A DNA stretch of 64,000 nucleotides from an uncultured Bacteroidaceae bacterium (lineage in GTDB: Bacteria > Bacteroidota > Bacteroidia > Bacteroidales > GCA-2748055), in contig CAYVTV010000001.1 in assembly GCA_964454295.1 (NCBI GenBank), positions 1,111 through 65,110 on the forward strand, in the 5' to 3' direction. The notes beneath the pieces are model-generated. The model searched no databases. It was not told the origin of the DNA and saw nothing but the letters and a program-made list of their open reading frames with translations. This document shows, in pieces, positions 22,205-60,074 of the stretch. Numbering within the stretch: the first letter of the stretch is position 1; each line of letters begins with the position of its first letter. A program made the position numbers and the translations under genes.

Positions 22205-22348
22205 GTAGTTAGTTGAAAGTCGAAAGTTGAAAGTTGAAAGTGGGGCTAACTTTTAACTTTATAAACTTTCTACTTTTACTGATTCTACTGATCCACTCAA
22301 CCACTCAACCACCTCCATGGTCTATGGTCCATGGTCTATAGTCCACCA
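22205..22348. repeat. Composite short-tandem-repeat block: (AGTTGAAA)n, its inverted counterpart, (CCACTCAA)n and (CCATGGTCTAT)n
   Basis: agttgaaagtcgaaagttgaaagttgaaagt ... aacttttaactttataaactttc ... ccactcaaccactcaaccac ... catggtctatggtccatggtctatagtcc. Confidence 0.85.
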
Positions 22349-23094
22349 ATGAACCTCCTCATCGACATCGGCCACCCCGCCCACATTCATTATTACCGCA
22401 ATCTTGCCGCTGAACTGGAATTAAAAGGCCATAAAATGAGCTGGACAGTCAAGGATATACCGGTCGCCAAACATTTGCCTGACCATTATGGATTTTCCTA
22501 CACTGTTTTTCCTCAAAAGGTATTTTACCCTGTGAACCCTATTTTATCATGCGTTTCAATGCCTTTAAGGCACATAACGATACAGGAGTGAAAGGCCTGT
22601 CTCTCTCCAACAAAATACAACTCATTGATTTACTCAAACCATACGGGAAAATATTCATCACTACCGAAAGGAACATTGAAGCTGAATTAGAAGAATACCG
22701 GCTAAAAATAAGTCCCGAAAAAATCCACTCATTAATGGCCTTTGCCACCCTGTTTCTCGGCGACAGCCAGACCATGTCCTCCGAAGCCGCCGTACTGGGG
22801 ATTCCTTCCCTGAGATGCAACTCCTTTGCCGGACGTATTTCTTACCTGGAAGAGGAAGAACATAAATACGGATTAACATTCGGATTTAAACCCGAACAAT
22901 TCCCTGAAATGGTCATAAAGCTGAAAGAATTACTCTCCATGCCCAATCTGAAGGAAGAATTTCAGCAAAGGCGGCAAAACATGCTGGCGGATAAGATCGA
23001 TGTCACCTCATTCTGGCTGTGGTTTATTGAAAACTACCCTGAAAGCATATCCATGATTAAAGATGAAAATTCATTCTGGGAGAAATTCAGATAA
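22349..23094 (+). pseudogene. DUF354 paralog with an internal deletion of roughly 115 codons and a frameshift
   Basis: Codons 1-56 (MNLLIDIGHPAHIHYYRNLAAEL...TVFPQK) are in frame 2. They join at about 22520 to the C-terminal half (frame 1, 22525..23094), which is homologous to residues from about 172 onward of 17319..18410. Confidence 0.8.
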
Positions 23095-23290
23095 AACCCT
23101 CATGAACTTCCCCCGATCCCGTTTTCATCCGCCGTCCACGTGCTTTACTACGCTGAAGCTTCTCCTTCGTAGGTTTACTCCGGAGAGGGAGCTACGCGAG
23201 AGCGCAGTCGCTGAAGCTTTAGCGCCGCGTCTTCGGCAAGCCTTCGGCGGCCGAAGGGAGGCACAAACTTTAGCGTAGGTGGAGATAGTA

Positions 23291-23379
23291 TGATCCCTCT
23301 ACCTCCACTCGATCCCGTGATCCCGTGATAGCGTGATCCCTCTATTCACCCAACCACTCACCCACGTAACCACTCAATC
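23291..23379. repeat. Octamer brick block: (GATCCCGT/GATCCCTC)n followed by (CACCCAAC/CACTCACC/CACGTAAC/CACTCAAT)
   Basis: gatcccgtgatcccgtgatagcgtgatccctc ... cacccaaccactcacccacgtaaccactcaat, ending 1 nt before the wecB-fragment ATG. Confidence 0.8.
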
Positions 23380-23466
23380 ATGAAAATCCTCTCAGTCGTC
23401 GGCGCCCGTCCCAACTTCATGAAAATTGCCCCCTTTATCCGGGCAATTTCCGGTTATAATGAATAA
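23380..23466 (+). pseudogene. 5' fragment of wecB (28 codons then a stop)
   Basis: atgaaaatcctctcagtcgtcggcgcccgtcccaacttcatgaaaattgcc... is nearly identical to the first ~80 nt of wecB at 19765, then ends at a TAA. Confidence 0.85.
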
Positions 23467-23549
23467 AAAACACTAATTATGTTCATTATAAATATCAAAA
23501 TTAATCCAAAAAATCCCCACCCAAATCGCATTATGTTGCTATAAATTTA

Positions 23550-23557
23550 TATCTTTG
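23550..23557 (+). promoter_or_regulatory. Bacteroidota -7 promoter motif (TAnnTTTG)
   Basis: TATCTTTG lies 44 nt upstream of the ATG at 23601. Confidence 0.35.
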
Positions 23558-23600
23558 CTTTAAATGATCAGGATATTTAAAAGCAACACTTTAAATTATC

Positions 23601-24466
23601 ATGTATATCAGAAAACAAATATTGCAGGATGCCGGTAAAGAAAGTCTTTTTTTATGGGGCGCCCGGCAGACCGGTAAAAGCACTTTGTTAAAAAAAATGT
23701 TTTCTGATTCACTATGGTTTGATCTTTTGAACTTTTACGTGCGTTAACTCATGGCCTGATACCAAGGCATTATATTTCCAATCACCCGGAAAAATTGATT
23801 TCAGCATATATTGGTAATTATCTGCAGGAAGAGATCATCGCGGAAGCCAGAATAAGAAATATAAGTTCTTTTTCCCGTTTTCTTGAAATGGCTGCTTTTT
23901 CCAACGGAGAAATTGTAAACTACTCAAATATTGCCACTGACTGTGGCGTTAGTGCTCCTACTGTTAAAGAATATTTTCAGATACTCGAAGATACCCTTAT
24001 CGGAAGATTTCTTCCTTCTTTTCAAAAACAACCCAAACGCAGAGTAATTTTGGCGCCAAAGTTTTATTATTTTGATGTGGGGATAGCAAATTATCTGCTA
24101 AAAAGAAAAGTTGTTGAACCCGGCAACGAAGTTTTTGGGAAGGCTTTTGAACATTTTATTTTTCATGAGTTATATGCACATAGCAGCTATTCAGGACTCA
24201 ATTATCCGGTTAAGTTTTGGCGTACTGCATCCGGCATGGAGGTGGATTTCATCCTGGGGGATCATGAGGTTGCCATTGAAGTCAAAGCTACTGATAACGC
24301 AAATTTCCGTCACTTCAGGGGATTAAAAGCTTTTTCCGGTGAATACACAGTTAAAAAACAGATACTGGTAAGCAATGATCCTATGCCGCGTTTTACTGAG
24401 AATATTCTTATTCTTCCATGGAAGGAGTTTCTTGACAGATTGTGGGATGGGGAGATAATCGGATAG
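23601..24466 (+). pseudogene. AAA-ATPase (DUF4143-type) gene with an internal deletion and frameshift
   Basis: The N-terminal 45 codons carry the Walker A motif (GARQTGKSTLLKK) and end at a stop near 23745. The C-terminal part (frame 2, RALTHGLIPRHY...YIGNYLQEEI...EVDFIL) is ORF 23795..24466. The central ATPase core is missing. Confidence 0.75.
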
Positions 24467-24492
24467 GTCGGTGAGGGGAGGAAGTGATTACG

Positions 24493-24610
24493 TGGTTGAA
24501 AGACAAAGTTTGAAAGTTGAAAGTTACGTGGTTGAGTAATTGAGTAATTGAGTAATTGAGTAATTGAGTAATTGAGTAATTGAGTAATTTTACTCAGTAT
24601 ATTGAGTAAA
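24493..24610. repeat. Brick block containing (TTGAGTAA)x7 as a perfect tandem array
   Basis: gtggttgaaag...tttgaaagttgaaagttacgtgg, then TTGAGTAA x7 at 24532-24587, then the inverted unit ttactcag and one more ttgagtaa. Confidence 0.9.
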
Positions 24611-26090: not shown

Positions 26091-26872
26091 TGCCCGACTT
26101 CACCCTCAACACCTACCACACCCTCCTCACCGTCCTCCGCGCACAGGACTATTCCTTCCACCCCATGGAAGAGCTACCCTTTACCCTTCCCGGAAAGATC
26201 ATCGTCCTCCGTCATGATGTAGACCTCCGCCCGCACCGCGCCCTGCAGACCGCCCTCCTGGAAAACCGCCTCGGCATCAGCGGAACATACTACTTCCGCA
26301 TGGTGCCGCGATGTTTCAATACCGACATCGTGAAGCAAATCCGCGACCTCGGCCATGAAATAGGATACCACTACGAAGACCTTACCCTTACCAGGGGGAA
26401 TATCGATGCGGCTTACACATCTTTCTGCACCCATCTCAATACCCTGCGGCAGTACTACCCGGTAAAAACCGCCGCCATGCACGGCAGTCCCGCCAGCCGC
26501 CACGACAGCCGCGATATATGGACATCATACAGCTACCGCGATCAGGGCATCATCTGCGAACCCTACTTCGATACCGACTTCAGCAAGGTACTCTACCTTA
26601 CCGACACCGGCCGCCGCTGGGACGGATGGAAAGTGAACGTGCGCGATAAAATCACTGGAAAAGAATATGGCCGCGACAACAATATATCCTTCCGCTCCAC
26701 CCGCCATATCATCGCCGCCGCCAACGCCCTCACCCTCCCCGATAAGATCATGTTCAACATCCACCCCCAACGCTGGACCGGCAAACCCCTGCCGTGGATG
26801 AAAGAACTGATCCTGCAGAATGCAAAGAATATAATAAAAAGAGTAATCATCTCCCTTCGTGTTCCTTCGTGA
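26090..26872 (+). CDS. Polysaccharide deacetylase-like protein (CE4-superfamily-like)
   Basis: IVLRHDVDLRP...GISGTYYFR...GHEIGYHYEDL resembles deacetylase-fold proteins found in capsule loci. Its start ATG overlaps the mazF stop (TAATG). Its last codons run into hairpin repeat B. Confidence 0.5.
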   Translation: MPDFTLNTYHTLLTVLRAQDYSFHPMEELPFTLPGKIIVLRHDVDLRPHRALQTALLENRLGISGTYYFRMVPRCFNTDIVKQIRDLGHEIGYHYEDLTLTRGNIDAAYTSFCTHLNTLRQYYPVKTAAMHGSPASRHDSRDIWTSYSYRDQGIICEPYFDTDFSKVLYLTDTGRRWDGWKVNVRDKITGKEYGRDNNISFRSTRHIIAAANALTLPDKIMFNIHPQRWTGKPLPWMKELILQNAKNIIKRVIISLRVPS

Positions 26873-26934
26873 ATACCTTTGTGTACCTTCGTGGTTAAAC
26901 ACGTAATGAGGTTAACCACGAAGGAACACGAAGG
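26854..26934. repeat. Family-1 hairpin repeat, copy B
   Basis: ccttcgtgttccttcgtg...accttcgtggttaa / acacgtaatgag / gttaaccacgaaggaacacgaagg. Confidence 0.85.
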
Positions 26935-26943
26935 ATTTTTTTA

Positions 26944-26951
26944 TATCTTTG
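26944..26951 (+). promoter_or_regulatory. Bacteroidota -7 promoter motif (TAnnTTTG) upstream of the sugar transferase gene
   Basis: TATCTTTG lies 26 nt upstream of the ATG at 26977. Confidence 0.4.
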
Positions 26952-30523: not shown

Positions 30524-30528
30524 CGCCC

Positions 30529-30628
30529 CCTTCGTGTACCTTAGTGACATCCTTCGTGTCCTTTGTGGTTAAATACGTACGGAGATTAACCACGAAGGAC
30601 ACAAAGGGTTACACCAAGGTACACGAAG
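30529..30628. repeat. Family-1 hairpin repeat, copy E
   Basis: ccttcgtgtaccttagtgacatccttcgtgtcctttgtggttaa / atacgtacggag / attaaccacgaaggacacaaagg... Confidence 0.85.
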
Positions 30629-31631
30629 TATCTTTAAGAAAAATCCTTCCGGTTTCCCTTATCACCGCTTCCATCCTTTCAAACTCAATCCCCACCGCCC
30701 CCTTCACCTTCTCATTCGAAAAATACACCTGCCTTATTCCTGCGCGTGCCGTCTCCGGGGTGATAACACGTGTTCCGGTGAATAGCGACCTTACCCCATC
30801 CAGCCGTGCAGCAGTCATGGCCATGAAAGGAGTAGCTTCTATGGCAGGAGGGCGGACATTCAGGCTGGCGGCGATCATCTCAAAGACCTCCTTATAGGAG
30901 AAGTTCTCCGCGGAGATGATGAACCTTTCCCCCGAGATATCACTGTTCATGAGGCGTATCATGCAGTCCGACACATCCTTTACCGACACGAAGCCCGTCA
31001 CACCACAGGTATAATACCTGAGTCCCTTGTAAATGGTGGTGAACATGGAAGAGGAACCCTTGTCCCAGAAGCCGGGACCAAAGATGATGGAAGGGTTCAC
31101 TATCACCGCATTAAGGCCCTCTTCCATACCCCGCCATACTTCCATTTCCGATTTGAACTTGCTGATGGCATACCCTGTGTTTTTCTTGTCGGGCCGCCAG
31201 ATCATATTCTCGGTAACAGCTTCTCCCCGGGCGGCTTCACCCAGGGCTGAGGTGGAACTCACATGACACAACTTTTCAATGCCCAGGTCGAGACATGCAT
31301 TGACAATGTTGGCCGTTCCTGTCACGTTATTAACGATCATCCGGTTGCGGTCGCGCGGGTTGAACGACACAAACGCGGCGGCATGGTAAAGCCGGGAAGT
31401 TCCCTCCAGCGCATCGGCAACAGAATCGTAATCCAGGATATCAACATCCACCCATTCAATACGTTCAAAAAGAGAATCAGGATCAGAGGTGTAGCAGGAA
31501 AATACATGCCGTATGGCTTCGGTATTGCTGGTTTCCCTCTTTAACGCCCGTATATTTTCCGTTGAAGAAGAAAGAAGATCAAACAATACCCTGGATCCAA
31601 GCAGGCCTGTGGCGCCGGTGATGGTGATCAT
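30609..31631 (-). CDS. NAD-dependent epimerase/dehydratase family (SDR) protein
   Basis: MITITGATGLLGSRV glycine-rich NAD motif and a YAISK catalytic motif. The last codons lie in hairpin repeat E. Confidence 0.8.
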   Translation of the reverse strand: MITITGATGLLGSRVLFDLLSSSTENIRALKRETSNTEAIRHVFSCYTSDPDSLFERIEWVDVDILDYDSVADALEGTSRLYHAAAFVSFNPRDRNRMIVNNVTGTANIVNACLDLGIEKLCHVSSTSALGEAARGEAVTENMIWRPDKKNTGYAISKFKSEMEVWRGMEEGLNAVIVNPSIIFGPGFWDKGSSSMFTTIYKGLRYYTCGVTGFVSVKDVSDCMIRLMNSDISGERFIISAENFSYKEVFEMIAASLNVRPPAIEATPFMAMTAARLDGVRSLFTGTRVITPETARAGIRQVYFSNEKVKGAVGIEFERMEAVIRETGRIFLKDTSCTLV

Positions 31632-31664
31632 GGTTTTTCAGCAAAAATAATGAATTTAGCCGAA

Positions 31665-31764
31665 CTTCGTGTTCCTTTGTGAAATCCTTCGTGTACCTTC
31701 GTGGTTAAATACGTATTGAGATTAACCACAAAGGACACGAAGGATTTCACGAAGGACACGAAGG
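31665..31764. repeat. Family-1 hairpin repeat, copy F (arms of ~43 nt, near-perfect)
   Basis: cttcgtgttcctttgtgaaatccttcgtgtaccttcgtggttaa / atacgtattgag / attaaccacaaaggacacgaaggatttcacgaaggacacgaag. Confidence 0.9.
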
Positions 31765-31779
31765 GAAGTCTATTTTTTC

Positions 31780-31787
31780 TATCTTTG
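31780..31787 (+). promoter_or_regulatory. Bacteroidota -7 promoter motif (TAnnTTTG) upstream of gmd
   Basis: TATCTTTG lies 20 nt upstream of the gmd ATG (31807). Confidence 0.45.
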
Positions 31788-31806
31788 TTATTTAAACAAC
31801 AATCAA

Positions 31807-32910
31807 ATGTCAAAAACAGCACTCATCACCGGCATTACCGGGCAGGACGGAGCGTACCTCGCAGAATATCTGCTGGAAAAAGGGTACAAAGTTCATGGTA
31901 TCAAGCGGCGCAGCTCCATGTTCAACACGGGAAGGATTGATCATCTGTACCAGGATCCGCATGAGGAGGAGAAGAAGTTCATCCTTCATTACGGTGACCT
32001 TACCGACTCAACCAACCTGATACGTATCGTGCAGGAGGTTCAGCCGGATGAAATATATAATCTGGGAGCACAGAGTCACGTCCAGGTGTCGTTCGAAACT
32101 CCCGAATATACGGCTAATTCTGATGGTCTGGGTACCCTTCGGATGCTCGAAGCCATACGCCTGTTAGGCCTCGAAAAGAAAACAAAATTTTACCAGGCCT
32201 CCACCAGTGAGCTTTTTGGGAAGGTGCAGGAAGTGCCGCAAACCGAAACAACCCCGTTTTATCCGAGAAGCCCGTATGGTGTGGCAAAACTCTACGGCTA
32301 CTGGATAACGGTGAACTACAGGGAGGCATATAATATTTTTGCCTGCAACGGCATATTGTTCAACCACGAGTCGCCCATACGCGGCGAGACATTTGTCACC
32401 CGCAAGATCACCCGCGCCGTAGCACAGATAGTGCTGGGTATGAAAGATAAGCTGTATATGGGTAACCTCTCGGCCCGACGCGACTGGGGACATGCAAAGG
32501 ACTATGTGAAAGCCATGCATATGATCATGCAACAGGATGTAGCTGAGGATTTTGTCATCGCCACAGGCATCATGACCGAAGTGAGGGAGTTTATACGTAT
32601 GGCCTTCCTTGAAGCAGGAGTGGAAGTTGAATTCCGCGGGAAGGGCACGGACGAAAAGGGATATATTGCCGGAATACATCAGTTACCGGACAACAGCACA
32701 CTGGGTAAAGATGCGGTGGGCAGGTGCGTGGTGGAAGTCGACACCGACTACTTCCGTCCCGCCGAAGTGGACATGCTTGTGGGTAACGCGGAAAAGGCAC
32801 GACAGAAGCTGGGATGGAAACCGCAATATACCCTGCACGACCTGGTGAAGGAGATGGTAAAAGGCGACCTGCGGCTTATAGGCAGGGAGAAGATAATGCA
32901 AGGCAAATAA
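31807..32910 (+). CDS. gmd: GDP-mannose 4,6-dehydratase
   Basis: [41 protein letters not shown] and the full-length pattern are typical of Gmd. Confidence 0.95.
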
Positions 32911-32914
32911 AACT

Positions 32915-33014
32915 CCTTAGTGTCCTTTGTGTCAGCCTTCGTGTCCTTCGTGGTTAACCTCATTACGTATTTAACCACAATGGACACAAAGGTATATCAC
33001 AAAGGACACGAAGG
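32915..33014. repeat. Family-1 hairpin repeat, copy G (loop in inverted orientation)
   Basis: ccttagtgtcctttgtgtcagccttcgtgtccttcgtggttaa / cctcattacgtat / ttaaccacaatggacacaaagg...cacgaagg. Confidence 0.85.
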
Positions 33015-33031
33015 AATACAATTATTACACT

Positions 33032-34147: not shown

Positions 34148-34244
34148 AACCCTTAGTGTCCTTTGTGGTTAAATACGTATTGAGGTTAACCACAAAGGAC
34201 ACGAAGTACAACACAAAGGTACACAAAGGTTAATACGTAACCAC
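34130..34244. repeat. Family-1 hairpin repeat, copy H
   Basis: ccttcgtgtccttcgtgaaacccttagtgtcctttgtggttaa / atacgtattgag / gttaaccacaaaggacacgaag... Confidence 0.85.
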
Positions 34245-46320: not shown

Positions 46321-46326
46321 TAATAA

Positions 46327-47026: not shown

Positions 47027-47073
47027 AAGATATTATTTGCGTTTTTTTTGTAACAGATCACTTCAAATATACC

Positions 47074-48755: not shown

Positions 48756-48831
48756 AAACTATTAGTTATCTTTTTTCAAAAATATAAACCTGAAATACAG
48801 AATCCAAATATTTTCGAAAATAACTTTAACT

Positions 48832-48932
48832 CCTTCGTGTCCATTGTGAAACCCTTTGTGTCCATTTGTGGTTAAAAACGTAATGAGGTTAACCACAAAG
48901 GACACTAAGTACACACGAAGGAGCACAAAGGG
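48832..48932. repeat. Family-1 hairpin repeat, copy O
   Basis: ccttcgtgtccattgtgaaaccctttgtgtccatttgtggttaa / aaacgtaatgag / gttaaccacaaaggacactaag...cacaaagg. Confidence 0.85.
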
Positions 48933-48934
48933 GG

Positions 48935-49828
48935 TTACTTAATTTCGTTGAATTTATATGCGATCATGAGTTCATGCGTTCCGGCGTTGAATTTCCGTAT
49001 TCCTGAAACGCCAATGTCATAAGCATAGCCGAAATAAAATTTCTCTTCATGGACATATCCCAGGAGTATGGATAATGCGTCTTTCGACCGGAATGAAAGG
49101 CCTCCCCAGACGAAGTCCTTGTAAACCACCCGGGTGGTAAGGTCAAACTGGAACACTTTAGGAGCTGTGCCTTTTATGATAATGGAAGGTTCGAGTTTGA
49201 ATTCGCGGTTAATTTCGTATATGTATCCACCGGTAATATAGAAGTGACTTTTGAGTTTATTCAGTCCGTTTTTTTCTTCGAATATTCTCAGTGAGTTATT
49301 GAAGAGTTGTGTTACGGAGAATCCGCCGTAGAATTCTTCGGCATATACATAGGCGCCTATGGTTGCGTCAGGCACATAGGTGGAAAAAACAACCGGCTGT
49401 ATCGCTATATCCGCAGGATCCTTTGAAGTAAGCTGTGATCCGTCGATCTTGAATTGCATAATACCCAGTGAGAGGCCCATGGATAAACGGATATCACGGT
49501 CCAGTGCAATATTGTAGGCATAGGTGCCGGAAAGCCCGGTACGGCTGGAAGGGCCCGTCACGTCATTATAGAAATATCCTCCATACCCCATATCCAGCGT
49601 TGCATGAGGGCCATAGACACTAAGTGTGTTTGTCATCGGCGGATCAACCAGTCCTACCCACTGAAAACGGTGATTGGAGCGTATCTGGTAATAGTTCTTC
49701 GTTCCTGCAACTGCCGGATTAATGATGAAATCATTAAACATATACTGGGTATAATGGGGATTCTGCTGAGCCAGCATACCTGTTGTACTCAGTATGATCA
49801 TTAAGCTTATGTACACCAGTCTCTGCAT
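48935..49828 (-). CDS. PorP/SprF-family type IX secretion system membrane protein
   Basis: AQQNPHYTQYMFNDFIINPAVAG...RFQWVGL..PPMT is the family signature. It lies directly downstream of the giant adhesin gene. Confidence 0.88.
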   Translation of the reverse strand: MQRLVYISLMIILSTTGMLAQQNPHYTQYMFNDFIINPAVAGTKNYYQIRSNHRFQWVGLVDPPMTNTLSVYGPHATLDMGYGGYFYNDVTGPSSRTGLSGTYAYNIALDRDIRLSMGLSLGIMQFKIDGSQLTSKDPADIAIQPVVFSTYVPDATIGAYVYAEEFYGGFSVTQLFNNSLRIFEEKNGLNKLKSHFYITGGYIYEINREFKLEPSIIIKGTAPKVFQFDLTTRVVYKDFVWGGLSFRSKDALSILLGYVHEEKFYFGYAYDIGVSGIRKFNAGTHELMIAYKFNEIK

Positions 49829-49831: not shown

Positions 49832-52800
49832 TTATCTGATTATGGTCAAAGGACCGGTTAATGCGCTGGCACCTTTATAGGGTATTACAACATAGTAATA
49901 CGTTCCGATGGGTACTTTCTTCCCTTTATGATATCCGTCCCAACGCTTACCGGCAGTATATCCTTTTGAGCTGAATAACTTTTCTCCCCAGCGGTTGAAT
50001 ACTTCCACTAAAATATCAGGATAATATTCAGCATTGTCAATATCCCAGAAATCGTTTATTCCGTCATCATTAGGGGAGAATGAACTATAGATGACAATGT
50101 TTTCTATGATGGTAATGGTAACCGTGTCGTTTTCAACACAGCCGTGTTCATCCACTGCTGTTACCACATAGGTCTGGCTTGCAGGCGGCGCTGCCACCGG
50201 GTCGGGGGTTATAGTATTATCAAGACCTGTTGCAGGATTCCATTGATAGCTTACATACGGACCGCCTGTGGCATTCAGGTTTACAGGGTTGTTTTTAATA
50301 ACGGTGGTGTCATTACCTGCAGAAAGTCCCAGCTTGGGGTATATTCCAATAGTTATGGTGTCGGTATCATAGCAATCGTTCGTTCCCACTGCTGTGAGAA
50401 TATAACTTACTTCGCTTGTTACTGTGACTGCCGGATTGGGTATGCCCGGGTTGCTGAGTCCTTCTGCGGGCGACCATGAGAAGATACTTCCGCCCTGTCC
50501 GTCGAGTATTATTGTACTGCCTTCACAAACAATGGTATCGGCACCGGCAGATGCCGTTACGTTCGTTTTGGCCGGCATAGTTATTATCTCAGTGGTTTCG
50601 CAGCCGTTCTGGTCGGTAACTGTCAGTGTGTAGCTGCCGGCATCCAGGCCGGAACGATCTTTTGTGACAGGTCCGTCAGCCCACTGGTATGACATGGTCC
50701 CCGTTCCCCCGGTTACAGTTATTATTACCTCTCCGTCAGGACTATATCTGTTGCAGGTTGCAGAAGTAATATCACTTAAAATATCAAGAGGTAATGGCTC
50801 ATATACGCTTACTATATCTGTGAAATATCTGCCCGATTCTTCTTTCACTGCAATATAATATGTCCCCGGAGCCAGGCCGGCAAACTCATTATTGGCATGC
50901 CAGGTGAGGCTGTCATCAATGGAATATTCAACAGGACCTGTGGCATCGTTTACGGTGATGAGGATCACCGCGTCGTCATATCCGTTACATGTGGACGCGG
51001 TTATCGATAGGGTTACATCAAGGGAGGGAACAGAGCTTATGGTGACAGGCTGTATATAGGTGCAGTTGTTGCCATCTCTCACTATCACGTCATAAATGCC
51101 GGCTTCGAGTCCTGTATAGCTGGTCTGGGAGGTAAACGGACCAGCCATGCCGTTGATGGAAAATTCGTAACTGCCTGTTCCGCCGGCAACATTGGAAATA
51201 GTTATGCTTCCCTGTTTAAATTCATTATACCAGGGAGTGCCTGTTATGGTGGCCGTGATCTGGTCAGGCTGGTTAATAGTCACTTCACCGGAGTTCAGGG
51301 TACAGTTATTTGCATCCTTCGCTGTTACTATATAGGTTCCGCCTCCCATGCCCGTAAATATTCCGTCGGCCTGCCAGCTGATGCCATCGTATGAATACTG
51401 TATGGCTCCGGTTCCGCCGCTGACTTCATATGCCAGGGATCCGTTCAGGTTCCCAAAGCAGTCGGTGACATCAGTTGAGGCCTCGGCAACCGGCGTCAGC
51501 GGAGCCGGGTCTGTCAGCACTACCGGGGCATCAACTGCCTCACATGCGCTGTTGTCTTTTACAAGGGGGGTATAAGTGCCGGGACCGATGTTGCTGAAAT
51601 CAGAACCGGGCAGGAAACTTACTCCGTTGTCAATGCTGTATGTAAATGTTGGGGTACCGCCTGATGCATAAATGCTTATGGTTCCGTTTGCATCTCCGGT
51701 GCAGCTTATATCTGTCCATCTGACAGAATCAATACTTAGCAGAGCGGGTTCATTTATGGTAACGGGGCTGCTTTCAACAGGACCGCAGCCTTCATTGTCC
51801 GTTATGCTGACTGTATATGTTCCCTGGGCCAACGCAGTGAATAATCCGTCGTTATTAAACTCTGCCGAAGGATTAAGTGTAAAGGTATATGGGGATGTGC
51901 CTCCTGCTGCAATTACCGTTATGGTCCCGTTATCATCGCCGCTGCAGCTTATATCTTCTTTGGTAAGGGAAGAGATGACCAGGGGATCGGGTTCAGAGAT
52001 ATTGAAGATGCTGTCTTTTATGCAGTTGTTATCATCCATGATGGTAAGGGTGTGGTTACCTGCGGCCAGGCCGGTAAAGGTGCTGTCAGCCTGGAATGTT
52101 CCCCCGTTAATACGGTAAACAATACTGCCGGTACCACCGCTTGCTACAGCACTGACTGCACCGGTTGAATCTCCTGTACAGCCGGTAACATCAGTGACAG
52201 TGAAAGAGGTGAAGATCAAGGGGGCAGGGTGGTTAATATACACTACTGTATCATTTATACAGTTGTTTTCGTCCGAAATGGTTATGGTATGGTTTCCTCC
52301 GCTGACTCCTGTAAATATTCCGGTGGTATTTGGTATTCCTTCGTCAAGGCTGTAGCTTTTACTTCCTGTTCCTCCTGAGGCTTCAATGACTATTTGTCCG
52401 TTAAGGCTTGTATAACATACTGTTACGTCGGTCTGTGCGTAATCGTCTATGCGTATGGGTGAAGGCTGACTTATATTATTCAGGTTTCCGGTTGCCATAC
52501 ATTCATTAAAATCCTTAACGACTGTCTGGTAGGAACCCGCCGGAAGGTTATTGAAAATGGGAGAAGAAGACCAGGTTAGCCCCCCGTCAATGGAATACTG
52601 ATATGGGGTAACACCGCCGTTCACATTAAGTATCCGTATTTCTCCCATGGTATCGCCATGGCATAGGTTACCGTCGATACGTATTTCGGAGGTTATCAGC
52701 AGTTTATCAGGTTCATCGATGGTGATCACGTCTGTTTTAATGCAGGAGTTATTATCTCTGACATATACAGTATATGTGTTTTTAGATAAGTTGTTGAAAA

Positions 52801-55495
52801 TATTGGAAGCCTGGTAAGTTATTCCGTTTCTGGAATACTGGTAAGGAGGTGTGCCACCTGAAGCGGTTACCGTTATAGTTCCGTTACCCTGACCATTGCA
52901 AACCACATCTGTTTTGGCGAGTGACATTTGTAACGGATCGGGTTCAGTTATTGTTGCCATCGGGGTATATGAGGCGATGCAGGAGTTGGCGTCGGTAATG
53001 GAGAGGTTATACTCTCCCGGTGCCAGGCCGGTGATATCTTTGTCCGGGGAGGTGAATCCGTCCGGTCCTGTCCATGAATAGGTATAAGGTGTGGTTCCAC
53101 CGGTAACATTTATATATACAGAGCCGTTTTTATCGCCATAGCAGGAAACGGACAGTTTTGAAGAGCCGTCAGTTGATGCTTCCAGCGGGTCGGGCTGGGT
53201 GATGGTGAGCGTTCCGGTGGTTTTCTGGGGGCAGGTGTTATCGTCGGTGACACTTACGGTATAGTCGCCCGGACCCCTTCCGGTAAATGTTCCCGAGGTA
53301 TTTGTAATGGCTGTGGGGTTTAGGGTATAGTGCAGGGTTCCTGTTCCCCCGTTTGCGGTAACACTGATTATCCCGTTGGCAGCTCCGTTGCAGGTGATAT
53401 GGGTCAGCGCGGGCGGGTTAAGGGTAATGTCGGGCGGGTTAACGATATTGATAGCCGGGGTGACAGCCGGTGCACATCCTTTGGTGTCGGTGACGGTAAT
53501 GGTATAGGAGCCTTCCGACAGCCCGGTAAAGTCGCCATCGGGCCTGGAGTCGGCACCCGGGTTGAGGGTATATGTCAGGGGAGCATTACCGCCGGAGGCG
53601 GTGACATGAATTTCACCGTTATTGAAATTGAAGCAGGTGATATCCGAGAAAGTGGTGCCGGTAATGGTTATGGGACCGGGCTGGGTGATGTTGAACGGAA
53701 TGCTTGCTACGGGTCCGCAGGAGTTGGCATCGGTAAGGCTAATGGTATAATTGCCGGGAGCGAGTCCGGTGAATAGTCCGTCGTCGTTGAACGTTCCCCC
53801 GGGGCTAAGGGTAAAGCGGTAAGGTGTTGTTCCCCCGGAAGCGGCAACGGTGATGGTTCCGTCGTTCACGCCAGAACAAGAGGCGTTGGTGGAAGTCTGC
53901 AGGGTATACTGGAGCGGGTCGGGCTGGGTGATGGTGAGCGTTCCGGTGGTTTTCTGGGGGCAGGTGTTATCGTCGGTGACACTTACGGTATAGTCGCCCG
54001 GACCCCTTCCGGTAAATGTTCCCGAGGTATTTGTAATGGCTGTGGGGTTTAGGGTATAGTGCAGGGTTCCTGTTCCCCCGTTTGCGGTAACACTGATTAT
54101 CCCGTTGGCAGCTCCGTTGCAGGTGATATGGGTCAGCGCGGGCGGGTTAAGGGTAATGTCGGGCGGGTTAACGATATTGATAGCCGGGGTGACAGCCGGT
54201 GCACATCCTTTGGTGTCGGTGACGGTAATGGTATAGGAGCCTTCCGACAGCCCGGTAAAGTCGCCATCGGGCCTGGAGTCGGCACCCGGGTTGAGGGTAT
54301 ATGTCAGGGGAGCATTACCGCCGGAGGCGGTGACATGAATTTCACCGTTATTGAAATTGAAGCAGGTGATATCCGAGAAAGTGGTGCCGGTAATGGTTAT
54401 GGGACCGGGCTGGGTGATGTTGAACGGAATGCTTGCTACGGGTCCGCAGGAGTTGGCATCGGTAAGGCTAATGGTATAATTGCCGGGAGCGAGTCCGGTG
54501 AATAGTCCGTCGTCGTTGAACGTTCCCCCGGGGCTAAGGGTAAAGCGGTAAGGTGTTGTTCCCCCGGAAGCGGCAACGGTGATGGTTCCGTCGTTCACGC
54601 CAGAACAAGAGGCGTTGGTGGAAGTCTGCAGCGTATACTGGAGCGGGTCGGGTTGTGTGATGGTCAGGGGAATGCTGGTAGCAGAAGGGCAGGTATTACC
54701 GTCGGTGACTTCAACCGTGTAGGTGTTGGGGCCAAGATCTGTAAAGTGACCGGTTTGATTGGATGTTCCACCCGGAGATATTATATATGTATAAGTGCCT
54801 GTCCCTCCTGATGCCCCGATAGTTATCGTTCCGTTATTCGCCCCGTTACAGGTGATATTGGTTTTGTTCTCCGAAGTAATACTTATCGGATCAGGATCAG
54901 TGAAAGTAAGTATATCGGTTGAGTCTTTACTCAGACAGCCTGTTGCATCTGAAACCACAACACGGTAGTTTCCCGGGCTGCGATCTTCAAATGATCCGGT
55001 AATAGTTGAAAGGCCGTCAGGTTTAAGCAGGAAATTATAACTACCGGACTCTCCTGATGCTGTAACATTAATTTTTCCGTCGGCAAAACCTGTACAACTT
55101 ATGGGGGTTAGAATAACAGATGTGATTTGAATGGGTGGCGGCTGACTAACCGTTCTGTTCCTGAAGTCATTCATTGAGTTATTATCCTCCACAATACATA
55201 AATATGTGCCGGCGGATACATCCGTGAACGTATAGACTGTATCACTTGTTTGCGGGGATGAACGAGGCACTCCTCCTTTAATAATATAATAATAATAAGG
55301 TTTTGCCCCTCCGGTGATTGAAAAGGTAACAGTTCCCGTTGCACTACCGTTACAATCGGCAGGAGTAGTAGTGACGTCGATAATTACAGGTTGAGAGAAC
55401 AGGGATGTACTAACCGGCGCAAGACTTATTACTAAGATCAGTTGAAAAAGCAGTTTCATTTTCAGTTTTTCAGATACAGAGGTGCTGTTAATCAA
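49832..55495 (-). CDS. Giant cell-surface protein with more than 20 SprB-type repeats and a gliding-motility-associated (T9SS type B) C-terminal domain
   Basis: 1887 aa with a signal peptide. It has reiterated C-x-G-x-x-(D/N)G-x-I-x-V-x-A-S-GG-T-x-P-Y modules. The C-terminal FSPNDDGINDFWDI...FNRWGEKLF...GTYYYV is the CHU_C/type B sorting domain. Confidence 0.9.
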   Translation of the reverse strand: MINSTSVSEKLKMKLLFQLILVISLAPVSTSLFSQPVIIDVTTTPADCNGSATGTVTFSITGGAKPYYYYIIKGGVPRSSPQTSDTVYTFTDVSAGTYLCIVEDNNSMNDFRNRTVSQPPPIQITSVILTPISCTGFADGKINVTASGESGSYNFLLKPDGLSTITGSFEDRSPGNYRVVVSDATGCLSKDSTDILTFTDPDPISITSENKTNITCNGANNGTITIGASGGTGTYTYIISPGGTSNQTGHFTDLGPNTYTVEVTDGNTCPSATSIPLTITQPDPLQYTLQTSTNASCSGVNDGTITVAASGGTTPYRFTLSPGGTFNDDGLFTGLAPGNYTISLTDANSCGPVASIPFNITQPGPITITGTTFSDITCFNFNNGEIHVTASGGNAPLTYTLNPGADSRPDGDFTGLSEGSYTITVTDTKGCAPAVTPAINIVNPPDITLNPPALTHITCNGAANGIISVTANGGTGTLHYTLNPTAITNTSGTFTGRGPGDYTVSVTDDNTCPQKTTGTLTITQPDPLQYTLQTSTNASCSGVNDGTITVAASGGTTPYRFTLSPGGTFNDDGLFTGLAPGNYTISLTDANSCGPVASIPFNITQPGPITITGTTFSDITCFNFNNGEIHVTASGGNAPLTYTLNPGADSRPDGDFTGLSEGSYTITVTDTKGCAPAVTPAINIVNPPDITLNPPALTHITCNGAANGIISVTANGGTGTLHYTLNPTAITNTSGTFTGRGPGDYTVSVTDDNTCPQKTTGTLTITQPDPLEASTDGSSKLSVSCYGDKNGSVYINVTGGTTPYTYSWTGPDGFTSPDKDITGLAPGEYNLSITDANSCIASYTPMATITEPDPLQMSLAKTDVVCNGQGNGTITVTASGGTPPYQYSRNGITYQASNIFNNLSKNTYTVYVRDNNSCIKTDVITIDEPDKLLITSEIRIDGNLCHGDTMGEIRILNVNGGVTPYQYSIDGGLTWSSSPIFNNLPAGSYQTVVKDFNECMATGNLNNISQPSPIRIDDYAQTDVTVCYTSLNGQIVIEASGGTGSKSYSLDEGIPNTTGIFTGVSGGNHTITISDENNCINDTVVYINHPAPLIFTSFTVTDVTGCTGDSTGAVSAVASGGTGSIVYRINGGTFQADSTFTGLAAGNHTLTIMDDNNCIKDSIFNISEPDPLVISSLTKEDISCSGDDNGTITVIAAGGTSPYTFTLNPSAEFNNDGLFTALAQGTYTVSITDNEGCGPVESSPVTINEPALLSIDSVRWTDISCTGDANGTISIYASGGTPTFTYSIDNGVSFLPGSDFSNIGPGTYTPLVKDNSACEAVDAPVVLTDPAPLTPVAEASTDVTDCFGNLNGSLAYEVSGGTGAIQYSYDGISWQADGIFTGMGGGTYIVTAKDANNCTLNSGEVTINQPDQITATITGTPWYNEFKQGSITISNVAGGTGSYEFSINGMAGPFTSQTSYTGLEAGIYDVIVRDGNNCTYIQPVTISSVPSLDVTLSITASTCNGYDDAVILITVNDATGPVEYSIDDSLTWHANNEFAGLAPGTYYIAVKEESGRYFTDIVSVYEPLPLDILSDITSATCNRYSPDGEVIITVTGGTGTMSYQWADGPVTKDRSGLDAGSYTLTVTDQNGCETTEIITMPAKTNVTASAGADTIVCEGSTIILDGQGGSIFSWSPAEGLSNPGIPNPAVTVTSEVSYILTAVGTNDCYDTDTITIGIYPKLGLSAGNDTTVIKNNPVNLNATGGPYVSYQWNPATGLDNTITPDPVAAPPASQTYVVTAVDEHGCVENDTVTITIIENIVIYSSFSPNDDGINDFWDIDNAEYYPDILVEVFNRWGEKLFSSKGYTAGKRWDGYHKGKKVPIGTYYYVVIPYKGASALTGPLTIIR
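53184..54641. repeat. Near-perfect 729-bp tandem duplication (2 x 243 codons) inside the giant adhesin gene
   Basis: The sequence from 53184 recurs at 53913 (offset 729). I saw one difference, near 54633 (agggtatac vs agcgtatac). The protein segment TITQPDPLQYTLQTST...TGTLTITQPDPL occurs twice in the ORF translation. Confidence 0.9.
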
Positions 55496-58035: not shown

Positions 58036-58055
58036 TGTGATATATTAAAATAAAT

Positions 58056-58180
58056 GCACCTCGAAAAACCTCCAACTTCTGGGTTATACAAAATTTGTAA
58101 AGTCCTCATTCCGACGAAAATTGTCGGAACTCCGGCTTTACAAATTTTGCAAGCCTTGAATTTGGAGTTTTTAGAGGTGC
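58056..58180. repeat. 125-nt imperfect inverted repeat with a nested central hairpin
   Basis: gcacctcgaaaaacctccaacttc...caaaatttgtaaag pairs with ctttacaaattttg...gaatttggagtttttagaggtgc. The central hairpin is ttccgac-gaaaatt-gtcggaa. Confidence 0.7.
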
Positions 58181-58242
58181 CCTTAATAAGGAAAGATGTA
58201 AAATTAAGATTTTTACGGAACATTTTATAGTTTTGTACTTTG

Positions 58243-58331
58243 CATCCGGAAGTTCGTATAAATAAAAATTAAACGCAAAGGCAAATCTGCGCCTTTGCAC
58301 CTTTGCGTTTTTTTAATTTAACGAACTATTA
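58243..58331. mobile_element. Family-2 element, copy Z (internally shortened, reverse orientation)
   Basis: The reverse complement reads taatagttcgttaaattaaaaaaacgcaaaggtgcaaaggcgca..., matching the first ~45 nt of copy Y. The remainder folds as aaacgcaaagg...cctttgcgttt. Confidence 0.65.
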
Positions 58332-58532
58332 GTAACTACTCAGGTATTTAGGCTATAGGTATTTAGGCTTTAGGAATATAGTTGCATGTAATAAATGGCT
58401 TGTTTAAACTTCCGAAGAGACATACTTGATAAGAAAATATTGAACAAGAAAAAGTGTCAGGCGTCTGGACCAGATTTTGTAACGGCATTCTAAAAGCCTT
58501 CAGTCTTCAGTCTAAATAACCTGAATAGTTAC
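58332..58532. mobile_element. MITE-like element W (~200 bp) with ~23-bp terminal inverted repeats
   Basis: The left end gtaactactcaggtatttaggct (58332-54) pairs with the right end agtctaaataacctgaatagttac (58509-32), with 21 of 24 positions complementary. It directly abuts copy Z. Confidence 0.55.
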
Positions 58533-58558
58533 AACAATTAAAATAAAATATATTATAC

Positions 58559-59551
58559 ATGGAAACAGTTTTAAGCGGGATACGATCGACAGGGAACCTT
58601 CACCTGGGTAATTATTTTGGTGCCGTAAGGAATTTTGTGAAGATGCAGGAAGAATACAACTGCTTTTTTTTCATTGCGGATTTTCATTCACTGACAACAC
58701 ATCCAAAGCCGGGGGATCTGCATACCAATGTAAGGCAGGTTCTTGCTGAATATCTTGCTGCCGGGCTTGATCCGGAGAAAGCTACCATTTATATTCAGAG
58801 TGATGTGCCTGAGATACCCGAATTATACCTGCTTCTTAATATGAATGCTTATGTGGGGGAGTTGGAGCGCACAACCACATTTAAGGAGAAGATAAGATCG
58901 CAGCCGGACAATGTTAATGCCGGGCTTCTGACTTACCCTGTGTTAATGGCTGCTGATATAATTATTCATAATTCACATAAAGTACCGGTGGGTAAGGACC
59001 AGGAGCAGAATCTCGAAATGGCGAGGCGTTTTGCGCGGCGGTTCAATACCATTTACGGGACAGAATATTTCAATCTGCCTGAACCTTTTAACTTCGGTAA
59101 GGAGCTGGTTAAGGTTCCGGGGCTTGACGGTACCGGTAAGATGGGCAAATCGGAGGGGAATGGTATTTACCTTGTGGACAGTCCTGCCGATATAAGGAAG
59201 AAAGTGATGAGAGCCGTAACAGATGCGGGACCTGAAAAGCCAAAGCAGAAAATGTCGGAGCCGGTGCGTAATCTTTTTTATATCATGGAACTGATGTCGG
59301 ATGAATCCACATACCGGCATTTCCGTGAACTTTACAATAACTGCCAGATACGTTACGGCGACATGAAGAAGCAGTTGGCAGAGGATATTATTAAATTTAC
59401 CACTCCGCTACGGGAAAATATCCTGGATATTGTCAATAATGAGGAATATCTGTCAAAAGTGGCAAAAATGGGTGCGGAAAAAGCGCGTGCCAGTGCAGGG
59501 AAGACACTAAGGGAGGTGAGGGAGATCATTGGGTTCAGGCGTTTTTTCTGA
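58559..59551 (+). CDS. trpS: Tryptophan--tRNA ligase
   Basis: SGIRSTGNLHLGNYFGA (HIGH-like), GKDQEQNLE and KMGKS motifs. Confidence 0.95.
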   Translation: METVLSGIRSTGNLHLGNYFGAVRNFVKMQEEYNCFFFIADFHSLTTHPKPGDLHTNVRQVLAEYLAAGLDPEKATIYIQSDVPEIPELYLLLNMNAYVGELERTTTFKEKIRSQPDNVNAGLLTYPVLMAADIIIHNSHKVPVGKDQEQNLEMARRFARRFNTIYGTEYFNLPEPFNFGKELVKVPGLDGTGKMGKSEGNGIYLVDSPADIRKKVMRAVTDAGPEKPKQKMSEPVRNLFYIMELMSDESTYRHFRELYNNCQIRYGDMKKQLAEDIIKFTTPLRENILDIVNNEEYLSKVAKMGAEKARASAGKTLREVREIIGFRRFF

Positions 59552-59953
59552 TCACTTCATATAATCAGACACCCTTTGTTCACCCATGTACTGCCTGAAT
59601 TCTTCTGTCATCCTGTTCAATAAGTTATTCATGATGCATTTATCGAAAGGACATATCTGCTTATCCATGGGACAGGAGGGGATATTTATGGTCCCTTCAA
59701 TGGCTTCATAGATATTCAGAAAACTGATTTTTTCAGGCGGTTTGTGGAGGGAAAATCCACCTGCAGGCCCCCGCAGTGAATTTATATATCCTTCCTTGAC
59801 AAGTCTTTGCATAACTTTAGCCGTATGATGCCTCGAAGTTCCTGTCAACTCAGAGATCTGCACTACACTGAGAGGCTTCTGTGACCTGGCGATGAGAATA
59901 ATCCCATGAATGGCAATGGATGCTGCTTCGGAGAGGGAGATTATTTTTGACAT
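59552..59953 (-). CDS. Rrf2-family transcriptional regulator
   Basis: The N-terminal wHTH (AASIAIHGIILIARSQKPLSVVQISELTGTSRHHTAKVMQRLVKEGYI) and a C-terminal Cys pair fit Rrf2. Confidence 0.88.
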   Translation of the reverse strand: MSKIISLSEAASIAIHGIILIARSQKPLSVVQISELTGTSRHHTAKVMQRLVKEGYINSLRGPAGGFSLHKPPEKISFLNIYEAIEGTINIPSCPMDKQICPFDKCIMNNLLNRMTEEFRQYMGEQRVSDYMK

Positions 59954-59954
59954 T

Positions 59955-60074
59955 GATTGAGTGGTTGAGTGGTTGAGTGAATGAGTAAATGAGTAAATGA
60001 GTAATTGAGTAAATGAGTAAATGAGTAAATGAGTAAATGAGTAAATGAGTATATGAGTAAATGATTACGTAAAT
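59955..60074. repeat. 15-unit octamer tandem array (GGTTGAGT -> AAATGAGT -> ACGTAAAT) abutting the Rrf2 start codon
   Basis: gattgagt ggttgagt ggttgagt gaatgagt (aaatgagt)n aattgagt ... atatgagt aaatgatt acgtaaat. The array begins 2 nt upstream of the Rrf2 ATG (minus strand). Confidence 0.9.

Follow-up and report, generated by a model that had tools for sequence, protein, structure and literature searches.

What are the long tandem arrays of 7-9-nt units that occupy the intergenic spacers of an uncultured Bacteroidaceae bacterium, and do changes in their unit number switch the neighbouring genes? The question is raised by a stretch of 64,000 nt (contig CAYVTV010000001.1 of assembly GCA_964454295.1, positions 1,111 to 65,110; hereafter the window), for which an initial annotation, made from the sequence alone, had listed such arrays beside start or stop codons, assigned them together with nearby hairpin repeats to one combinatorial system, and proposed phase-variable expression, for example of an Rrf2 regulator. 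The reading that we favour, with a probability of roughly 55%, is that the arrays are lineage-typical intergenic long simple-sequence repeats (LSSRs), fast-evolving and tolerated in spacers, whose unit number drifts like that of a variable-number tandem repeat (VNTR), and that they are not phase switches. They would form one component of a mosaic, fast-evolving population of intergenic repeats, which would also include hairpins with arms built of tandem 9-10-nt units.

Arrays were detected with Tandem Repeats Finder (TRF), with our own repeat scan and by direct reading of the sequence. TRF returned 13 rows with a period of 6-10 and at least 3.5 copies in the window, vs. a mean of 0.02 after dinucleotide shuffling of the whole window and 0.06 after shuffling in 300-nt blocks (maximum 1); it also recovered every array of the initial list at the position given there, far beyond chance. 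All arrays of the window lie within its non-coding 11.4%, typically filling the gap from a stop codon or promoter to the next start, and their units are contiguous and head-to-tail, without spacers. Three details had to be corrected: the unit at 22.2 kb is a heptamer (AGTTGAA) and not an octamer; the three copies of TTACGTAA at 20.9 kb are spaced 14 and 9 nt apart and do not form a strict tandem array; and the array upstream of Rrf2, described as 15 octamers, does fill positions 59955-60074 up to 1-2 nt from the ATG but comprises about 13.5 clean units with degenerate ends. Several other identities were considered and rejected, namely a CRISPR array (the units have no spacers between them and no cas-like open reading frames (ORFs) occur in the window), miniature inverted-repeat transposable elements (MITEs; the arrays have neither terminal inverted repeats nor target duplications) and coding repeats (the arrays lie outside ORFs). 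Scans of the window with Rfam (gathering thresholds) and with ARAGORN for tRNAs gave no match, so the arrays are not a known RNA family.

Much of the evidence on their nature comes from a second strain of the same species (strain 2; JGI 3300005144, JGI 3300027051 and SRR5506721). Contigs of strains and species were gathered by exact-protein and homologue look-ups; the exact-protein look-ups with the histidine kinase and with the product of ORF 38151-38726 returned no contigs. Over 20 kb, strain 2 differs from the window by 0.88% of substitutions in coding and 7.3% in non-coding DNA, and the differences in the repeats cover unit number, unit sequence, presence or absence, and the replacement of hairpins by arrays.

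As for unit number, the longest array, (GATCCCNN) x18 at 40295-40438 on the minus strand (TRF: x17.8 at 40295-40436), occupies the convergent spacer between the histidine kinase gene (38910-39950, +) and cysS (40466-41932, -). It has 18 units in the window and in contig L006 vs. seven in strain 2 (contigs L171/L172), an exact difference of 88 nt or 11 units, and the units retained in strain 2 are identical. A sister species (89% protein identity for Rrf2, 84% for the kinase and 83% for CysS) has retained the Rrf2 array, with another unit mix, along with its 5' flank CCCTATATTTACGTAATCATTTACT, and there the array measures 112, 104 and 112 nt in three samples, i.e. one exact indel of an 8-nt unit. 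Whole units gained or lost are the mark left by replication slippage or unequal exchange, and the slipped-strand length variation that had been anticipated for the arrays is borne out by these two exact differences. An arm of a hairpin element also shows a unit indel, of 23 nt, between the strains.

Unit identity changes without any change in length. The spacer upstream of Rrf2 (59954-60081, minus strand, 128 nt, by TRF and direct reading) runs from the stop codon of a small AF_0155-like ORF (60082-60084) to the Rrf2 ATG (59951-59953), so the array fills nearly all of it. TRF resolves it into TTGAGTGG x2.9 followed by TGAGTAAA x11.4 at 59957-60064; on the Rrf2 strand the spacer reads TATATTTACGTAATC, then 109 G-free nt composed of ATTTACTC-type units, AACCACTC x2 and AATCA. 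These 109 nt have the same length in all seven contigs of the species and occur as two haplotypes with nine differing positions, all of them swaps among G-free unit variants, vs. 24 substitutions in about 4300 flanking nt. Sequence is thus exchanged unit for unit within a small set of variants.

Whole spacer cassettes are replaced as well. Spacer 31632-31806 carries a hairpin element in the window and, in strain 2, (CCCAATAA)4 (CACAATAA)3 (ATTACTCA)3 (AACCACGT/AACCACTC)4 (L171 20121-20517); spacer 32911-33031 likewise carries a hairpin in the window and (CCATAGA)4 ... (AACCACTY)9 in strain 2 (L171 18868-19036), the flanking genes being conserved to within a few codons in both cases. A few codons of the flanking gmd and epimerase genes are included in the replacement, which places the gmd stop codon in the first CCATAGA unit. 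Such replacement would proceed by recombination with, or copying from, other genomic copies. At 24532-24589 (+), 30 nt 5' of a frameshifted AAA/DUF4143 ATPase pseudogene (ATG at 24620), the window has (TTGAGTAA) x7.2 with 100% identical units; this array and the neighbouring AGTTGAAA units are absent in strain 2, where a single TTGAGTAA stands at the junction beside a different heptamer-arm hairpin. The context of the TTACGTAA triple is also absent there. Other arrays are shared unchanged: the AGTTGAA, CCACTCAA and ATGGTCT arrays at 22.2-22.35 kb are identical in strain 2, those at 23.3 kb show no indel, and (CGTCACT) x4 (40443-40470, minus strand, overlapping the cysS stop codon region) is the same. 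The leader array of the histidine kinase, (ACTTTCAA/ACTTTACAA) x8.7 at 38828-38898 (+), has equal length in both strains, with two substitutions. Under the reading proposed here, slippage or unequal exchange combined with recombination among dispersed copies would generate the arrays, and selection would only filter their place and orientation; unit number would then drift freely in spacers between two 3' ends and only to a much smaller extent in arrays that form the leader of an intact gene.

The same whole-unit differences (18 vs. 7, and one unit more or less) are what would be expected if the arrays were contingency loci, in which slipped-strand changes switch or strongly modulate a downstream gene such as Rrf2 at high frequency within a population, and the perfect (TTGAGTAA)7 array does look recent; yet the Rrf2 array is identical in length in seven contigs from several samples despite its nine differing positions, the kinase array is equally long in both strains, and the most length-variable array sits between two convergent stop codons. 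Expression can be modulated by tandem repeats in a 5' untranslated region (UTR), as PMC4679880 summarises for the AGAT repeats of Moraxella uspA2. Like the contingency loci of pathogens, the arrays studied here consist of short tandem units that change by whole units, but the units are of 7-9 nt and not of 1-5, they lie outside ORFs and not between promoter elements, and the leader arrays are stable in length. The neighbours, too, are housekeeping genes or pseudogenes (Rrf2, TrpS, CysS, the histidine kinase, a DarG-like protein, DUF354 and WecB fragments, and ATPase pseudogenes), and no surface, virulence or restriction-modification gene was found among the genes next to arrays. For the analogous GGGNATC repeats, Rehm et al. 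came to the same conclusion (PMC4692102). We therefore regard phase-variable switching, of Rrf2 in particular, as improbable, and the comparison speaks for caution in annotating such arrays as phase-variation switches.

The relation to promoters points the same way. In Bacteroidota the -7 promoter box is TAnnTTTG, and since the leader arrays are G-free on the sense strand they can hold neither this box nor a start codon. A scan for the box found the canonical form only ahead of the TTACGTAA triple, which lies at 20934-20965 (+; TRF period 14 x2.1) between the -7-box-like TATCTTTG (20924-20931) and an ATG at 20966; a one-mismatch version, TATATTTA, immediately precedes the Rrf2 array and has been retained by the sister species, and none occurs within 300 nt of the histidine kinase gene. 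The idea that the arrays as a class lie next to promoters is for this reason not established. The Rrf2 array would be a 5' UTR, and the kinase array an intercistronic spacer.

Arrays come very close to start codons, 1-2 nt for Rrf2, 11 nt for the histidine kinase, 0 nt for the ATG at 23380 and 3 nt for that at 22349, and their orientation relative to starts and stops shows a tendency. Among arrays with a G-versus-C skew of at least 0.5 lying within 60 nt of a gene end, the sense strand is C-rich before starts and G-rich after stops in 15 cases, vs. three that do not follow this rule (p = 0.0075), and in about 12 vs. 2 after removal of orthologous duplicates and one spurious ORF call. In the segment from -100 to +15, the computed minimum free energy is 0.0 kcal/mol for Rrf2 and -1.3 kcal/mol for the kinase gene, the two least structured of 51 genes (median of about -17), and the 100 nt upstream of each contain no ATG, GTG or TTG; for the spacer upstream of Rrf2 the computed values range from 0 to -1.4 kcal/mol. 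The array leaders, G-free or nearly so, are therefore predicted to be free of secondary structure and of AUG, GUG and UUG. Initiation in Bacteroidia depends on low structure, upstream adenines and AUG depletion and not on Shine-Dalgarno pairing (PMC6847099). G-free leaders would be tolerated, perhaps mildly favoured, in these bacteria because their ribosomes ignore Shine-Dalgarno sequences and rely on unstructured, AUG-depleted leaders, which makes the idea of a structure-free, AUG-free leader directly testable.

These properties may also be read more strongly, the G-free arrays that abut starts being selected translation leaders that, as single-stranded landing pads without start codons, recruit Shine-Dalgarno-blind 30S subunits, possibly via bS1, and fix the choice of start, with unit number setting the output. 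This tentative alternative fits the initiation biology just described, as well as the constant length of leader arrays between strains, the common orientation of AACCACTY-type arrays at six of seven loci, and the fact that the arrays of two species have remained G-free despite extensive turnover of their units; a comparable idea was put forward by MacGregor for TAACTGA repeats (PMC4679880). A G-free AACCACTY-type array adjoins the Rrf2 ATG in three species, with Rrf2 identities of 100%, 89% and 74%, but a relative with 69% Rrf2 identity has no array there, and in the sister species no array precedes the kinase gene, which follows cysS across a 58-nt spacer with a single CAAACTTTC. The nucleotide at -3 is T, and not the favoured A, before both Rrf2 and the kinase gene, most genes of the window manage without arrays, and the same properties would arise passively if harmful orientations were purged. 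On balance we consider selection for translation possible, though clearly less probable than tolerated drift.

Concerning the 3' side of genes, two further predicted structures are relevant. The (AGTTGAA) x4.4 array (22211-22241, +; TRF) begins 35 nt past the stop codon of the DarG-like macro-domain gene and forms the 5' arm of a hairpin whose 3' arm is the (AACTTTW)n array at 22247-22290 (+; TRF row 22247-22278), its inverted partner. The fold of 22196-22292 is predicted at -32.9 kcal/mol (z -5.7) and starts about 20-35 nt past the stop. The GATCCCNN array reads (AGGGGATC)n on the cysS sense strand, starting 29 nt past the cysS stop; its minus strand has 26 G-tracts and five non-overlapping G-quadruplex motifs (G3+N1-7 x4), as a sequence motif only. 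It also holds about 18 GATC sites at an exact spacing of 8 bp, and the RNA fold model predicts GAUC self-pairing in place of a quadruplex, at -52.7 kcal/mol (z -7.9); GATC being self-complementary, either strand of the array can fold back on itself. Known rut sites have a composition that resembles that of the arrays. Transcription end or attenuation might be their role, C-rich, G-poor, unstructured arrays loading Rho on the RNA in a rut-like manner and G-rich arrays after stops, such as (AGGGGATC)n, together with hairpins formed by array pairs, serving as quadruplex or hairpin 3'-end elements; arrays and hairpins would then be interchangeable terminators or insulators. The replacement of hairpin elements by arrays in the same spacers of another strain, the stable fold predicted past the DarG-like gene and the two faces of the GATCCCNN array (C-rich towards read-through from the kinase gene, with a motif-predicted quadruplex-capable strand after cysS) all agree with such a role. 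Arrays at 0-12 nt from a start, however, leave no room for a downstream promoter, so a terminator there would silence the gene, and we hold this explanation to be unlikely.

Do the arrays form one system? Of the 21 possible pairings of array loci, nine have exact 10-mers in common on either strand (expectation of about 0.02 per pair). AGTTGAAAGT is common to the 22.2 and 24.5 kb loci and stands in inverted form at 38.8 kb; the 22.3 and 23.35 kb loci share AACCACTCAA, which recurs inverted in the Rrf2 array; GATCCCGTGATCCC links the loci at 23.3 and 40.3 kb, and TTGAGTAA those at 24.5 and 60.0 kb, while the array at 23311-23379 shares 10-mers with both the 40.3 kb and the 60.0 kb arrays. Four unit families (AGTTGAA, CCACTCAA/TTGAGTGG, TTGAGTAA and GATCCCNN) recur, each at 2-4 loci, counted over the 64-kb window and its counterparts in strain 2. 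The segments 22198-22241 and 24481-24524 are 82% identical over 44 nt, non-repeat flank included (family D16), and the GATCCCCT units adjoin a hairpin core of about 45 nt (40179-40223), an extra copy of which lies upstream of gmd in strain 2, again with GATCCCCT units. As the same unit families stand at separate loci, sometimes with shared flanks, the arrays probably belong to one dispersed family, and the view that they represent one repeat system, and not unrelated microsatellites, is supported at this level of sequence comparison.

The extension of this view to the hairpins fared less well. Hairpin elements of the form (CCTTYGTG)n-GGTTAA-loop-TTAACC-(CACRAAGG)n occupy most spacers between 25 and 49 kb. 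More precisely, between 25230 and 48940 there is about one per spacer, with the structure (CCTTYGTG N)x2-4, GGTTAA, a loop (often ATACGTAWTGAG, in either orientation), TTAACC and (CACRAAGG N)x2-4; examples are found at 26850-26945, 30525-30635, 31660-31770, 32910-33020, 34125-34232, 35345-35455, 41950-42065, 46930-47035 and 48825-48940. The same units are present in species whose housekeeping proteins are 74-81% identical (contigs L173 and L182). The predicted AGTTGAA/AACTTTW hairpin, with its tandem-unit arms, has this same architecture. Nevertheless, the sharing of k-mers between arrays and hairpins in the window is not above chance (39 7-mers, 11 8-mers and 2 9-mers, vs. about 32, 10 and 3 expected from k-mer space), and random segments of the window of equal length share more k-mers with the hairpins than the arrays do. 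Motifs truly common to both are few: TTACGTA, CGTGGTTGA and TCAACCAC/GTAACCAC. TTACGTA and ACGT are found at array borders and in hairpin loops, and the ACGT and CGTGGTT motifs are, with TTAACCAC, the specific links that were retained once the general claim of a shared vocabulary had been dropped. For TTAACCAC the link is closer: (AACCACTT/AACCACTC)n arrays, present in the sister species, in strain 2 and in the relative with 74% Rrf2 identity, read in another register as tandem TTAACCAC, the right half of the hairpin core, and in that relative a hairpin element continues directly into a TTAACCAC-type array that ends at the Rrf2 ATG. The proposal of one combinatorial system with a common set of bricks thus appears partly right: it stands for the arrays, with their shared 10-mers and flanks and with spacers that they share with hairpins across strains, whereas continuity of sequence with the hairpins is limited to the TTAACCAC core. 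The hairpin elements are imperfect palindromic extragenic mosaics, and array pairs can form hairpins, the arrays themselves being direct repeats.

Comparison with other species places the arrays in a wider setting. When metagenomes were scanned with the histidine kinase, the contigs retrieved belonged to the sister species and to more distant relatives, and none to the species of the window. One syntenic species (CysS identity of 81%) has short, repeat-poor spacers and a single (AACCTAAT/AACCCATT)12 array past the gmd stop. Other units in relatives are AGTTAGGG, TAACCTCA, CCACCTCTA, CTAACAAT, AACTCATC x16.5, TGAGTAG and TAATTCG x27, and array-bearing distant Bacteroidales include Anaerophaga thermohalophila (L025) and Draconibacterium orientale (L063), with unrelated units that always lie in spacers. 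In 2.1 Mb of related loci, about 34 independent arrays were found, all intergenic, the one exception overlapping only a 91-aa ORF. Two array patterns were also scanned against viral contigs and gave three matches each, on giant-virus or unclassified contigs, which were uninformative.

Units conserved across species (the CCTTYGTG arms, the TTAACCAC core and AACCACTY), the recurrence of units containing TGAGT/ACTCA in distant genera, and cassette replacement, which suggests mobility, would all suit an array of binding sites, the units being recognised as DNA by a regulator or nucleoid protein, or by a transposase or recombinase that maintains the hairpins as well, as RAYT does for REP/REPIN. The window encodes no transposase, recombinase, RAYT (Y1 transposase) or candidate binding protein, though, units differ widely between lineages and a spacing of 7-9 bp does not match helical phasing, which makes this the more improbable even than switching by slippage. 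A broader version would combine several of these roles: arrays and tandem-unit hairpins would be interchangeable modules of an actively maintained cassette system of a Bacteroidales clade, in which G-free TTAACCAC-derived arrays are selected as unstructured, start-free tracks for Shine-Dalgarno-blind ribosomes or for Rho, unit number or cassette type provides heritable tuning, and unit conservation reflects a binding or mobilising protein. We find this combination doubtful, if somewhat more credible than a role in transcription end by itself.

Tolerated, drifting LSSRs remain the preferred reading, and several points weigh against it. What it says about function is inferred. The orientation rule rests on about 14 independent arrays; the simpler rule that the G-free strand is always the sense strand, irrespective of start and stop position, failed (about 10 vs. 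8), and both (TTGAGTAA)7 and AGTTGAA have the C-free strand as the sense strand of their co-directional flanking genes. The excess of units without G or without C is mild (about 21 of 33 vs. 35-45% expected) and depends on the intergenic composition assumed. Length constancy of leaders is based on two loci, and the Rrf2 array of the 74% relative is about 50 nt long. Cross-species conservation of the CCTTYGTG, TTAACCAC and AACCACTY units exceeds what pure junk would lead one to expect; it hints at active maintenance or at a binding partner, and is the feature least explained by neutrality. Finally, short-read assemblies may collapse or mis-order repeats, and the contigs with the seven-unit allele (JGI, Logan) possibly come from the same sample. 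Repeats are indeed classic sites of assembly error, and many contigs of this organism end at them (the repeats explain the fragmentation of its assemblies), but that the arrays or their strain differences are artefacts of short-read assembly is hardly credible: different studies, with different assemblers, independently yielded identical arrays, most of these do not exceed read length, and, by inspection, the seven-unit allele has a unit order absent from the 18-unit allele and is hence not a simple collapse.

How do the arrays relate to known systems? Cyanobacterial heptamers of the STRR type were reportedly described by Mazel et al. in 1990. The resemblance of the present arrays to these and to LSSRs is close: head-to-tail units, here of 7-9 nt, of a length beyond chance and strongly intergenic, with a few families reused (here as counted in the window and its strain-2 counterparts), occur sporadically across lineages and in free-living non-pathogens, and polymerase slippage is the assumed origin. 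LSSRs are simple-sequence repeats with units of 5-11 nt (Mrazek et al. 2007, as summarised in PMC4679880), and the arrays of the window fall within this range, beyond chance and with a strong non-coding bias. They differ in belonging to uncultured Bacteroidales, in being mostly octamers of other sequence, and in being mixed with, and exchanged for, tandem-unit hairpins. The literature on LSSRs and on heptamers proved useful; little was found on octamer repeats in Bacteroidetes or on STRR.

Two repeat classes offer more specific parallels. Rehm et al. (2015, PMC4692102) described quadruplex-forming GGGNATC / GGGGA(C/T)T repeats in Xanthomonas and Nostoc whose G-rich strand is the sense strand when they follow a stop codon within 50 bp and the antisense strand when they precede a start; these repeats are transcribed, comprise 2-26 units and vary among close relatives. 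On the sense strand of cysS, past its stop, the 40.3 kb array is (GGGGATCR)n and so contains GGGNATC, and the 23.3 kb array presents the C-rich complement on the sense strand before a start, in accordance with the same positional rule. Here, too, there are from 2 to more than 18 units, with extensive variation in length and sequence among close relatives, and the neighbours are housekeeping genes. The differences are an octamer, GGGGATC(A/G), instead of a heptamer, no preference for four units, a quadruplex that is only motif-predicted, and another phylum. As for TAACTGA heptamers, which lie upstream of starts in Beggiatoaceae, cyanobacteria and five Bacteroidetes (MacGregor 2015, PMC4679880), they share with the present arrays a forward orientation a few nt from starts without Shine-Dalgarno sequences, the lack of predicted RNA structure and of any functional pattern downstream, the frequent absence of an array in the same spacer of the closest relatives, and the occurrence of other heptamer arrays in the same Bacteroidetes spacers. 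The present arrays have an unrelated unit, are longer (up to 18 units) and come with direct strain evidence of polymorphism in unit number and cassette; no TAACTGA array was found in the TRF output of the window. The same pattern of position and orientation, and the same strain variability, thus characterise repeat classes in Xanthomonas, Nostoc, Beggiatoaceae and some Bacteroidetes (PMC4692102, PMC4679880).

With the hairpins in mind, one further comparison can be made. The REP/BIME elements of enterobacteria and REPINs are short motifs combined in mosaics of variable number and orientation, extragenic and mostly placed after genes. Combinatorial motifs, extragenic spacers and strain-variable presence and copy number recur here; the arrays, however, consist of direct repeats where those elements are palindromic, the window encodes no RAYT-type transposase, and the sequences are unrelated. 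Tandem repeats of 5-11 nt have been catalogued for decades in cyanobacteria, xanthomonads, Beggiatoaceae and a few Bacteroidetes without an accepted function. This locus extends the rules of position and orientation to a new lineage and permits direct comparison from strain to strain and from species to species, which separates three modes of change (unit number, unit identity and cassette replacement) and hints that the leader arrays of intact genes are constrained in length and kept G-free.

The remaining arrays of the window are shorter or degenerate. Between the AGTTGAA/AACTTTW pair and the ATG (22349) of a frameshifted DUF354-like gene, TRF detects (CCACTCAA) x2.5 (22293-22312) followed by (TCCATGGTCTATAG) x2.3 (22314-22345), together spanning 22293-22345 (+). 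At 23311-23379 (+), (GATCCCGT) x3.8 (23311-23340; TRF) is followed by degenerate CACCCAAC/CACTCACC/CACGTAAC/CACTCAAT units and adjoins the ATG (23380) of a 28-codon N-terminal fragment of WecB; degenerate copies of CCACTCAA lie at 23341-23379. The array GAAGTGATTACGTGGTTGAAAG... (AAAGTTG/AAAGTTTG)n at 24485-24525 (+; TRF row 24505-24525) is homologous to 22198-22241, flank included. Near the GATCCCNN array are the G+C-rich imperfect hairpin core of about 45 nt at 40179-40223 (GAGTTGCCACCCCTGGCTATTAAATTGATGCCCCGGGGCAGGG), companion of the GATCCCCT units, and (CCCTCTGTGT) x2.4 at 40262-40285 (TRF), hairpin-arm-like units that lead into the array.

By Pfam, the genes around the arrays are wecB (19765-20913, +), the macro-domain gene (21141-22175, +; DarG-like by homologue names), the histidine kinase gene, cysS, trpS (58559-59551, +), Rrf2 (59552-59953, -) and UDG (60285-60965, -). 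Broken genes extend across 22.3-25.2 kb: the frameshifted DUF354 gene, the WecB fragment and two AAA/DUF4143 ATPase pseudogenes. The best genome matches of the histidine kinase are metagenome-assembled genomes at 71-74% identity, followed by Tenuifilaceae, Prolixibacteraceae and Marinilabiliaceae. When segment 20914-22175 is compared with the strain-2 contig L185 (5373-7035), an intact gene for the DarT toxin precedes darG in strain 2; the DarG-like antitoxin of the window appears orphaned, since wecB, the TTACGTAA triple and a 62-codon ORF stand there instead. Strain 2 also possesses a second partial macro copy, after which comes a second copy of the AGTTGAA hairpin.

Other elements were noted in the window. 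A palindromic, MITE-like insertion of 133 nt at about 58047-58180 (GGGCACCTCTAAAAACTCCAA ... TTGGAGGTTTTTCGAGGTGC), just upstream of rbfA, is absent in strain 2 (L090) and in the sister species (L087), and the rest of this spacer is also strain-variable. At 23140-23265, a G+C-rich element carries the palindrome-like GCTGAAGCTT twice (CGCTGAAGCTTCTCC ... GTCGCTGAAGCTTTAGCGCCGCG ... GCCTTCGGCGGCCGAAGG) and has no Rfam match; a related CGCTGAAGCTTCAGCG is found upstream of Rrf2 in the 74% relative (L182 1350-1395), and the element may be another dispersed element or a structured RNA. At 38722-38772 there are two direct copies of GTAGAGACGTGCC, the second of which forms a perfect hairpin with GGCACGTCTCTAC right after ORF 38151-38726; this hairpin is conserved in strain 2, and a related GAGACGTG occurs at 40225. 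A third small repeat family, of CGCAAAGG/CCTTTGCG hairpins (AAACGCAAAGGC ...), is present in spacers 46325-46461, 63144-63280 and 58259-58306 (families D13 and D19).

Two observations concern the rest of the window. A block of low G+C content at 6000-14000 (29-32% vs. 40-50% elsewhere) lies within a run of polysaccharide-biosynthesis-like genes, has neither arrays nor hairpin elements, and may be horizontally acquired. The ORF at 49832-55495 (-), of 1887 aa, contains a 300-nt direct repeat with 100% identity (53184-53483 and 53913-54212, spacing of 729 nt), surrounded by more diverged repeats with a period of 243 nt (families D7, D12 and D14), a pattern that suggests a giant surface-type protein with a domain repeat duplicated recently.

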